From the NCBI GenBank assembly GCA_045589395.1, contig JAZNOZ010000003.1:25576-57575 (forward strand): a stretch of DNA of 32,000 nt. The letters run 5' to 3'. The stretch's first letter is position 1. Every line of letters begins with the position of its first letter. This document shows positions 18,147-18,205 of this stretch, piece after piece. This DNA is from Acutalibacteraceae bacterium. GTDB lineage: Bacteria > Bacillota > Clostridia > Oscillospirales > Acutalibacteraceae. A program made the position numbers and the translations under genes. The notes beneath the pieces were generated by a model that saw only the letters and a program-made list of their open reading frames with translations, ran no database searches and was not told where the DNA came from.

Positions 18147-18195
18147 TTTAGGGAAGTTGCACAAAAAAATGCTGATAATTATACAAAATAAATAT
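18106..18195 (+). repeat. right copy of the prophage-flanking direct repeat (attR region)
   Basis: Partner of 11441-11530 (see that feature). Confidence 0.9.
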
Positions 18196-18205
18196 TTTGT
18201 ATAAT
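18178..18205. other. dif-like site with perfect 11-bp inverted arms around a 6-bp centre
   Basis: ATTATACAAAA (18178-18188), TAAATA (18189-18194), TTTTGTATAAT (18195-18205). The arms are exact reverse complements, giving the 28-bp 11-6-11 architecture of Xer substrates. Confidence 0.55.

Follow-up and report, generated by a model that had tools for sequence, protein, structure and literature searches.

An inovirus-like prophage of 6,665 bp was found at a perfectly symmetric 11-6-11 site close to a tyrosine recombinase gene in the genome of an Acutalibacteraceae bacterium. The stretch analysed, called the window below, comprises 32,000 nucleotides (GenBank assembly GCA_045589395.1, contig JAZNOZ010000003.1); all coordinates are window positions, and the loci used for comparison are labelled L001 onward. 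The palindrome is very probably the recombination site of the adjacent Xer-family recombinase, most probably the dif site of these gut Clostridia, and the filamentous phage would integrate there by means of this host enzyme. An earlier note on the same DNA had read the element as an IMEX (integrative mobile element that exploits Xer). This reading is supported by the lack of a recognisable recombinase among the phage proteins, by dif-like sites at both ends of the element, by an empty site in a relative, by conservation of the site, and by its serial and tandem occupancy.

Anatomy of the site and of the flanking repeat

The right junction of the prophage (18178-18205) reads ATTATACAAAA-TAAATA-TTTTGTATAAT in the window sequence, with 11-nt arms that are exactly complementary around a 6-bp centre. 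At the left junction (11513-11540) the sequence is ATTATACAAAA-TAAATA-TGTGATAATAA; left arm and centre are the same, and the second arm differs. The prophage is flanked by a direct repeat of 95 nt with 84% identity (11436-11530 and 18101-18195), and the identity stops one base past the centre, where a common T is followed by G in one copy and T in the other. In all three respects the description given in the earlier note was confirmed. The 11-N6-11 pattern (three mismatches or fewer) occurred once in the 32 kb, compared to 0.01 occurrences expected from shuffled sequences. A canonical Bacillus-type dif was also sought in the window, with chance-level matches only.

The bare 11-mer arm was present in four further exact copies in the window, at 11513, 11641, 18687 and 18720, and with up to one mismatch it was matched 10 times, compared to 3.35 expected. 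All extra copies cluster at the ends of the element or just outside them. Hence the full palindrome is unique within the window, and the half-site is not.

Between the recombinase gene (xer) and the left junction (attL) lies a 77-nt sequence that resembles the right end of the phage, the P arm. Its positions 11440-11481 encode LHSIESELRRLIL and a stop, compared to LHTIETELRGLII and a stop at the C-terminus of p70, the last gene of the phage, and the differences are synonymous. A block of 26 nt, TGATTTAGGGAAGTTGCACAAAAAAA, is identical at 11479-11504 in this remnant and at 18144-18169, where it follows the p70 stop codon. The block is also kept beside xer in L081 (4285-4310) and in L083, despite differing upstream DNA, and a diverged P-like arm is found left of attL in L092. 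The simplest reading of the remnant is serial occupancy, in which an earlier related phage would have been followed by the present one, integrated into the regenerated site. The 26-nt block is a candidate for the origin used by the replication initiator (Rep) or for an accessory site, and the Rep nick site may fall in TTTAGGGAAGTTGCACAAAAAAA.

The neighbouring recombinase and the empty site

The protein encoded beside attL contains a Pfam Phage_integrase domain (5.7e-37) and a SAM-like N-domain. Its NCBIfam scores were 208 bits for XerC (cut-off 335), 193 bits for XerD (cut-off 330) and 192 bits for XerA, all below the cut-offs; the XerS model NF003462 gave 138 bits. The nearest structure in PDB was XerD (1a0p, 1.4e-29), followed by XerA, and XerH was much weaker (3e-15). 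Close relatives in metagenome-assembled genomes (MAGs) of Oscillospiraceae and Ruminococcaceae are labelled 'tyrosine recombinase XerC' by NCBI. The exact 333-aa sequence had no match in the assembly index, probably due to a different start codon or sequence.

Comparison of the recombinase to species-representative genomes resulted in 80 loci. The closest one, L001 (70% identity), belongs to a sheep-gut Clostridia MAG and contains an empty site: radA (8346-9692), the identical palindrome (9878-9905) and xer (from 10001) follow each other with no phage between them. Since synteny is kept around an empty palindrome, the window differs from this locus by a 6.7-kb insertion exactly at the palindrome.

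Conservation of the site and covariation of its arms

Any 11-6-11 palindrome was searched for, unbiased as to arm sequence, in the 400 nt upstream of each of the 80 xer homologues. Perfect or 10/11 palindromes were found, with the arms ATTATACAAAA/TTTTGTATAAT in L001-L003, ATTCAACAAAA/TTTTGTTGAAT in L005, L006 and L080, ATTCCCGAAAA/TTTTCAGGAAT in L007, and ATTCTCGAAAA/TTTTCGGGAAT in L009. The variants are self-complementary; both sides change together, and the inner AAAA-N6-TTTT is kept. Compensatory changes of this kind would be expected if two copies of a single, co-evolving protein bind the site. Conservation of the site in relatives, which the earlier note had named as a point to be checked, was thus found upstream of xer together with compensatory arm changes. 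Other candidate palindromes were seen with the more distant xer homologues (L010-L079). In seven of these loci (L019, L025, L026, L041, L052, L060 and L073), the palindrome TTATGAAA-N6-TTTCATAA was observed about 200 nt upstream of xer; it recalls difH as well as the canonical XerD arm.

A scan of metagenomes with the pattern ATTATACAAAA-N6-TTTTGTATAAT yielded at least 120 stretches from human gut, rumen and fermenter, with one site each. Among the matches listed, a xer homologue (43-64% identity to that of the window) was present on 61 stretches, always with the site 5' of the gene and usually 20-500 nt away. Of the 42 listed stretches that extend 1.5 kb or more to each side of the site, 30 contain the homologue. 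In a lineage with the centre TGCAAA, the site and its flank motif are present and an adjacent xer is absent, so the site is not simply part of the xer promoter.

The symmetric arms belong to a unit of about 37 bp that is itself asymmetric. In 83 of 117 stretches (L098-L217, among the matches listed), a TNRGGGGAG-like sequence follows one of the arms and never the two of them. In the direction of this flank the centre reads T-[A/G]-A-A-[T/A]-[A/G], position 4 being A in 76 of these 83, again among the matches listed. In the window the flank motif is TTAGGGTAG, directly after the intact site. Both orientations relative to xer occur, and the orientation in L001, L092 and L218 is opposite to that in the window. 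The opposite orientation might plausibly have arisen by inversion, mediated by Xer, between the site and inverted half-sites in its vicinity.

Other elements at the same site and the form of attP

Thirty-five relatives of the phage Rep were found, many of them on contigs of about 6 kb. In the host of L081/L082, which has the same gene order as the window and flanks with about 83% identical nucleotides, a different phage (B) occupies the same place. Its Rep is 93% identical in amino acids to that of the window phage, and the structural genes differ. Phage B is bounded by arm-TAAATA-TGTGGCATTAA at attL and by the perfect palindrome at attR. L083 contains a tandem array in the order xer-side flank, hybrid site, a window-like phage (A'), P arm with arm-TAAATA-TGTGGCATTAA, phage B, perfect palindrome and host DNA. 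In another host genus (L092/L093), phage C lies between radA with a 33-aa open reading frame (ORF) on one side and the palindrome with xer on the other, and in L094-L096 it forms tandem dimers with the internal junction arm-TAAATA-AGATAAGGTGT.

The site is also used by an element with an unrelated Rep. The element of L170 (5.2 kb, 1462-6672) encodes a pMV158-type Rep (Rep_OBD and RepB_C) and is bounded by a perfect site beside xer and by a hybrid with the same centre and one arm. Hybrid sites of the attL kind were found in phages B and C, in phage D (described below) and in the L170 element. In all of these loci, and in L091 and L218 described below, the GGGGAG flank stays with the intact site, and the second arm of the hybrid is unrelated. 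A 1.8-kb element was observed at the same site in L103 (4366-6169); its helix-turn-helix (HTH) protein is 56% identical to the repressor of the window phage. In L091 (6296-6396) and L218 (5203-5301), a phage end, a hybrid site, about 45 nt, a perfect palindrome and xer follow each other; this layout could represent a second element that has lost most of its sequence, or it could have resulted from inversion of the DNA between the site and a half-site in inverted orientation.

For the circular form, the earlier note had predicted a junction (attP) of left arm, TAAATA and TGTGATAATAA. The exact 28-mer gave no match in IMG/VR, and the predicted form, arm and centre followed by a non-dif arm, was seen in relatives. 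Phage D (L220) is a circular sequence of 6,024 nt with a 30-nt terminal overlap, and its attP, CCCCTAA-ATTATACAAAA-TATTTA-GGAAATTATGA, stands immediately after the stop codon of p72. A phage contig with a p70 100% identical to that of the window (L221) ends in P-arm-ATTATACAAAA-TAAATA-TGTGGCA, L084 begins with phage B's own P arm joined to the left end of phage B, and the phage-phage junctions described above have the same form. In phage D the centre has the opposite polarity and is accompanied by its own copy of the flank motif, in keeping with an alignment through the homology of the centres. The four second arms (TGTGATAATAA, TGTGGCATTAA, AGATAAGGTGT and GGAAATTATGA) show no consensus with the host arm or with one another.

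In phage C, the centre at attL is TATTTA (L092:5046-5073), compared to TAAATA in the attP-type junction (L094:6487-6514) and at attR (L092:11304-11331). This difference of two bases bears on the position of strand exchange or on the origin of the left flank.

These junctions also bear on the assignment of the phage to the CTXphi/VGJphi class, which the earlier note had suggested and which did not hold. In IMEXs of the CTXphi type, two inverted attP sites fold in single-stranded DNA (ssDNA) into a forked hairpin substrate; in the VGJphi type, attP is double-stranded and has two recognisable recombinase-binding arms. A CTXphi-like integration of the present phage would proceed from a folded ssDNA attP by exchange of one strand pair, would be completed by replication and would be irreversible, with new phage made by rolling circle across tandem or remnant P arms. 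Such a course would suit the rolling-circle initiator of the Rep_trans type, the P-arm copy or remnant upstream of attL in every lysogen examined, with its conserved 26-nt block, and the frequent tandem arrays; the deviating attL centre of L092 would also be explained more easily by one-sided exchange. However, an inverted second site is absent from the phage, since the additional arm at 11641 is in direct orientation, and the ssDNA fold of the attP region is a short self-hairpin of the core instead of a forked 28-bp duplex. A CTXphi-type folded substrate was therefore rejected. Furthermore, the remnants differ from the resident P arm (84% identity) and are therefore assigned to earlier occupants. 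A CTXphi-like course is accordingly regarded as improbable. A VGJphi-type attP was likewise rejected, because one arm is fully degenerate and the second arms share nothing with the host arm or each other.

Location of the site

A terminus-like location was examined with a local, orientation-invariant test on the 10 xer-linked loci that have 4 kb or more of flanking sequence to the left and to the right, for which positive GC skew and plus-strand genes were expected on the left flank and the opposite on the right. The left skew exceeded the right skew in all 10 loci, and the signs were plus/minus in nine and minus/plus in none. Coding DNA left of the site amounted to 35.9 kb on the plus and 16.2 kb on the minus strand, and right of the site to 12.6 kb and 41.1 kb, respectively. 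These values support a dif-like location without amounting to proof.

Alternatively, recombinase and palindrome could form a dedicated landing-pad or integration module, such as an integrase that has been domesticated together with its att site, or a small DNA-inversion system, with a separate XerCD/dif elsewhere; the phage would still use the host enzyme. The layout of gene plus site is like that of integration modules, a likeness pointed out for xerS-difSL by Le Bourgeois et al. (PMC1914069), the recombinase scored under all Xer equivalog cut-offs, and the two orientations of the site relative to xer, with inverted half-sites nearby, would make inversions possible. In contrast, polarity was terminus-like at nine of the 10 loci, many genera have kept the module whether or not a phage is present, and the TGCAAA-centre lineage keeps site and flank motif without an adjacent xer. 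In our own comparison, 8 of the 11 positions of the arms agree with TTATGTAAACT, the canonical arm of XerD, and XerD and XerA were the best structural relatives. A dedicated module of this kind is therefore considered unlikely.

Further copies of the arm

The arm copy at 11641, the position of which is conserved in phages A' and B, and the first of the two copies beyond attR lie in promoter-like contexts (Table 1). Both copies beyond attR are upstream of a conserved ORF of about 33 aa (about 18578 to 18480, minus strand), which is called as a gene in L081 and L092. The copies near 18687-18715 and 18720-18730 have 17 nt (AAATATTTTGTATAATT) in common with the right half of the dif-like site. An interpretation of the arm as 'extended -10' was rejected, because the TG is at the wrong spacing. 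On the basis of these motifs, a promoter function of the arm copies might at most be suspected.

If the palindrome were mainly transcriptional, as divergent promoters or as a xer operator, the prophage boundary would have arisen there by another mechanism, e.g., a Rep-mediated one. The arms do contain TATAAT, the copies give TTGATT-17-TATAAT matches, and the site is always 5' of xer in the 61 listed stretches. However, variant arms (TTGAAT, GGGAAT) are not -10-like and are palindromic nevertheless, promoter-like matches in the arm-copy regions were no more frequent than in shuffled sequences, phages with unrelated Reps end exactly at the centre of the same site, and the site also occurs where no xer is adjacent. 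A mainly transcriptional role is thus highly improbable.

Proposed mode of integration

In the proposed mechanism, one recombinase would bind the two identical arms of the chromosomal site; the identity of the arms argues for a single recombinase. The phage attP would offer a copy of one arm and of the 6-bp centre, joined to an unrelated second arm. The double-stranded replicative form would pair with the chromosomal site, and the host recombinase would exchange strands at the centre. Of the two products, attL, facing xer, would be a crippled hybrid, and attR, facing radA, would be fully intact. With attR intact, dimer resolution would be preserved and further phages could integrate; integration at the regenerated attR would account for the tandem arrays as well as for the remnant of phage origin to the left of attL. 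With one arm missing from attL, the prophage would not be deleted at each use of the site. That the neighbouring recombinase catalyses the reaction, in which order the strands are exchanged, and that the site functions as dif are inferences.

Several observations weigh against integration by a host Xer enzyme at dif. At the NCBIfam equivalog level the recombinase falls outside XerC, XerD, XerS and XerA. No empty site of the same species was found, and the nearest lysogens, L081/L082, are only about 83% identical in host DNA. The GC skew of the left flank in the window is near zero and not clearly positive, with a clearly negative right flank, and the terminus test and the copy counts cover stretches of contigs instead of complete genomes. 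As the metagenome pattern demanded symmetric arms, symmetry in that set is by construction. Finally, the arm is similar to a -10 box and is found again in promoter-like surroundings; its conservation could thus be due in part to transcription.

A broader proposal is made tentatively, as a possibility that falls somewhat short of even chances. The palindrome ATTATACAAAA-N6-TTTTGTATAAT, the TNRGGGGAG flank and the linked xer may constitute an undescribed single-recombinase dimer-resolution system of gut Clostridia of the Oscillospiraceae/Ruminococcaceae type, to be placed alongside XerS, XerH, XerA and XerL, and a hotspot shared by integrase-less filamentous phages and other rolling-circle elements. 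In addition, the P-arm block upstream of every prophage may serve as Rep origin, from which phage DNA could be made by rolling circle straight from the chromosome, by analogy to CTXphi/RS1 arrays.

Genes of the prophage and its surroundings

The coordinates of all features are listed in Table 1. As is typical of inoviruses, the prophage genome is small and encodes a Zot/pI ATPase and a rolling-circle Rep; small membrane proteins compatible with coat proteins are also encoded, and the ORFs share one strand, the repressor excepted. It was therefore classified as inovirus-like, that is, as a probable filamentous ssDNA phage, known here from its genes. The plus strand of the prophage shows a strong T excess. 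No match to recombinase families (integrase, serine recombinase, transposase) was obtained with Pfam and PHROG for any ORF of the window phage, and a recombinase was likewise absent among the called genes of phages B, C and D. The 392-aa protein had no family match in Pfam or PHROG. For p70, a two-helix hairpin was predicted with confidence, without a functional clue; its counterparts are syntenic ORFs of 68-77 aa in the related phages. A G+C-rich perfect hairpin was observed in phage C (L092:5097-5124) at the place equivalent to the hairpin of the window phage.

Table 1. Position, strand and basis of assignment of the features in the window
Feature	Position	Strand	Basis or remark
Host Xer-family tyrosine recombinase, 333 aa	10391..11392	-	RKHRHY catalytic residues visible in the translation; outside the repeats
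Phage-like P-arm remnant between xer and attL	11436..11512	+	Resembles the phage right end (77 nt)
attL, hybrid site ATTATACAAAA-TAAATA-TGTGATAATAA	11513..11540	+	Intact arm and centre, degenerate second arm
Inovirus-like prophage, 6,665 bp	11531..18195	+	ORFs on one strand except the repressor
Second exact arm copy inside the phage	11641..11669	-	TTGATT-17-TATAAT, promoter-like; points outward across attL toward xer
Hairpin, 18-bp perfect stem in the ssDNA fold	11697..11754	+	Candidate complementary-strand origin or packaging signal
Cro/CI-type HTH repressor	11927..12172	-	Pfam HTH_3 5.2e-13; PHROG transcriptional regulator 9e-18
Secreted or membrane-anchored protein, 392 aa	12830..14008	+	Candidate pIII-like adsorption protein by position and topology only
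Protein of 105 aa with signal-like N-terminus and C-terminal membrane helix ending in basic residues	15387..15704	+	Candidate major coat protein
Zot/pI-like assembly ATPase	15766..16407	+	Pfam Zot 4.5e-5, above cut-off; PHROG Zot-like 3.2e-11
Rolling-circle replication initiator, Rep_trans and Rol_Rep_N	16868..17950	+	Pfam 8.3e-29; PHROG replication initiation 7.5e-17
p70, small conserved ORF	17934..18146	+	Stops shortly before attP in all related phages
Phage P arm (prophage right end)	18101..18177	+	
attR, regenerated intact 11-6-11 palindrome, putative dif	18178..18205	+	Same site at the empty locus L001:9878-9905
Host flank motif TTAGGGTAG (TNRGGGGAG)	18206..18214	+	Polarity mark of the site
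Two more exact copies of the arm (18687, 18720)	18687..18748	-	First copy is TTGATT-17-TATAAT, upstream of the conserved ORF of about 33 aa
radA, host gene on the right flank	18755..20116	-	Translation, Pfam list of the L081 orthologue, synteny

Beyond xer, the host genes are spoIIM and a DUF3792 gene. Relatives of the Rep were also searched for in virus collections: the scan of IMG/VR with the Rep protein gave no relative, and among GenBank phages (INPHARED) the Rep had only distant matches (<30% identity) to 'bajarodino' viruses of about 6 kb. ARAGORN predicted tRNA genes in two related inovirus contigs of about 6 kb (Ala-cgc and Pro-cgg; L219:761-840, L220:3883-3964) and none in the window phage.

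Comparison with known systems

To our knowledge, nearly all known IMEXs are from Proteobacteria. In the literature searched, which did not include most subscription journals, no account was found of inoviruses of Clostridia or other Gram-positive bacteria that use Xer/dif; the earlier note likewise knew of none for a clostridial filamentous phage. Novelty would probably lie in a one-arm attP in what is probably a single-recombinase system, in Clostridia. The IMEX strategy would thereby extend to strictly anaerobic Gram-positive gut bacteria, in which inoviruses are barely characterised and their integration is unexplained. Clostridial inoviruses such as CAK1 and the Enterocloster prophages are 6.5-8.5-kb prophages of gut Clostridia with flanking direct repeats, and the Enterocloster paper contains no mention of Xer, dif or a recombinase (PMC10061712). 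Xer is likewise not mentioned by Roux et al. (2019). Kono et al. (2011) predicted dif sites of Firmicutes with a Bacillus-like profile, which failed for some Clostridia.

The host site itself, a symmetric dif-like sequence with an external polarity mark and a linked recombinase gene, is widespread in human and ruminant gut metagenomes. Being a simple system of one protein and 28 bp (about 37 bp with the flank), it could show how a symmetric site acquires directionality, and it may be a ready-made integration target for the engineering of gut Clostridia that are hard to manipulate.

CTXphi and VGJphi are integrase-less filamentous phages that use the host Xer recombinases at dif. The present phage resembles them in its Rep_trans-type initiator and in its tandem arrays. 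In a canonical XerC/XerD-dif system, two paralogous recombinases of equivalog level act on a dif that has two unlike arms and is not linked to their genes. Such a system was rejected for this locus in view of the sub-cut-off scores, the identical arms, the linkage of the site to the gene in the window and in relatives, and the lack of a Bacillus-type dif in the window.

XerH/difH of Helicobacter and Campylobacter, with the inner arms GAAAA-N6-TTTTC (PMC3325230), is similar in its single recombinase, its 6-bp centre and its palindromic inner arms. It differs in the outer arms, and the similarity of the recombinase to XerH is weak (3e-15, compared to 1e-29 for XerD). In XerS/difSL of streptococci and lactococci, the site is immediately upstream of a single recombinase gene at the terminus (PMC1914069). 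This system shares with the present one the affiliation to the Firmicutes and the linkage of gene and site, and the arms of L007/L009 (TTCCCGAAAA...TTTTC) resemble difSL. However, difSL is an asymmetric site of 31 bp, whereas here the 11-mer arms are symmetric and polarity comes from the centre and the outside GGGGAG flank. A XerS/difSL module was rejected on the basis of 138 bits against a cut-off of 267 and the perfect 28-bp palindrome; linkage alone is common. The recombinase is an equivalog neither of XerS nor of XerH.

IMEXs of the TLCphi type encode a Xer activation factor, XafT (DUF3653). No match to this domain was found by Pfam in the proteins of the window. TLCphi of Vibrio cholerae and the gonococcal genetic island (GGI) are IMEXs with an attP/dif copy in which one arm is degenerate (PMC5357621). 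Like these, the present phage has no integrase, and its attP consists of one arm and the centre of the host site, without a credible second arm. After integration, one site is defective and the other functional, and arrays with other IMEXs are formed (PMC5357621). The differences are a host site with two identical arms, and hence probably one recombinase instead of XerC plus XerD, and a Gram-positive anaerobe as host.

In the LME-1/XerL-dif system of Legionella, which depends on a single Xer recombinase, dif was revealed by the dif mimic of the mobile element, and a downstream modified site modulates the stability of the element (PMC9765430). The recombinase lineage of the present system is unrelated, LME-1 is not a filamentous phage, and xer is linked to the site here. 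As with LME-1, the phage points to a site that belongs to the host itself. Overall, the architecture is closest to that of TLCphi, GGI or LME-1, with one degenerate arm and probably a single recombinase.

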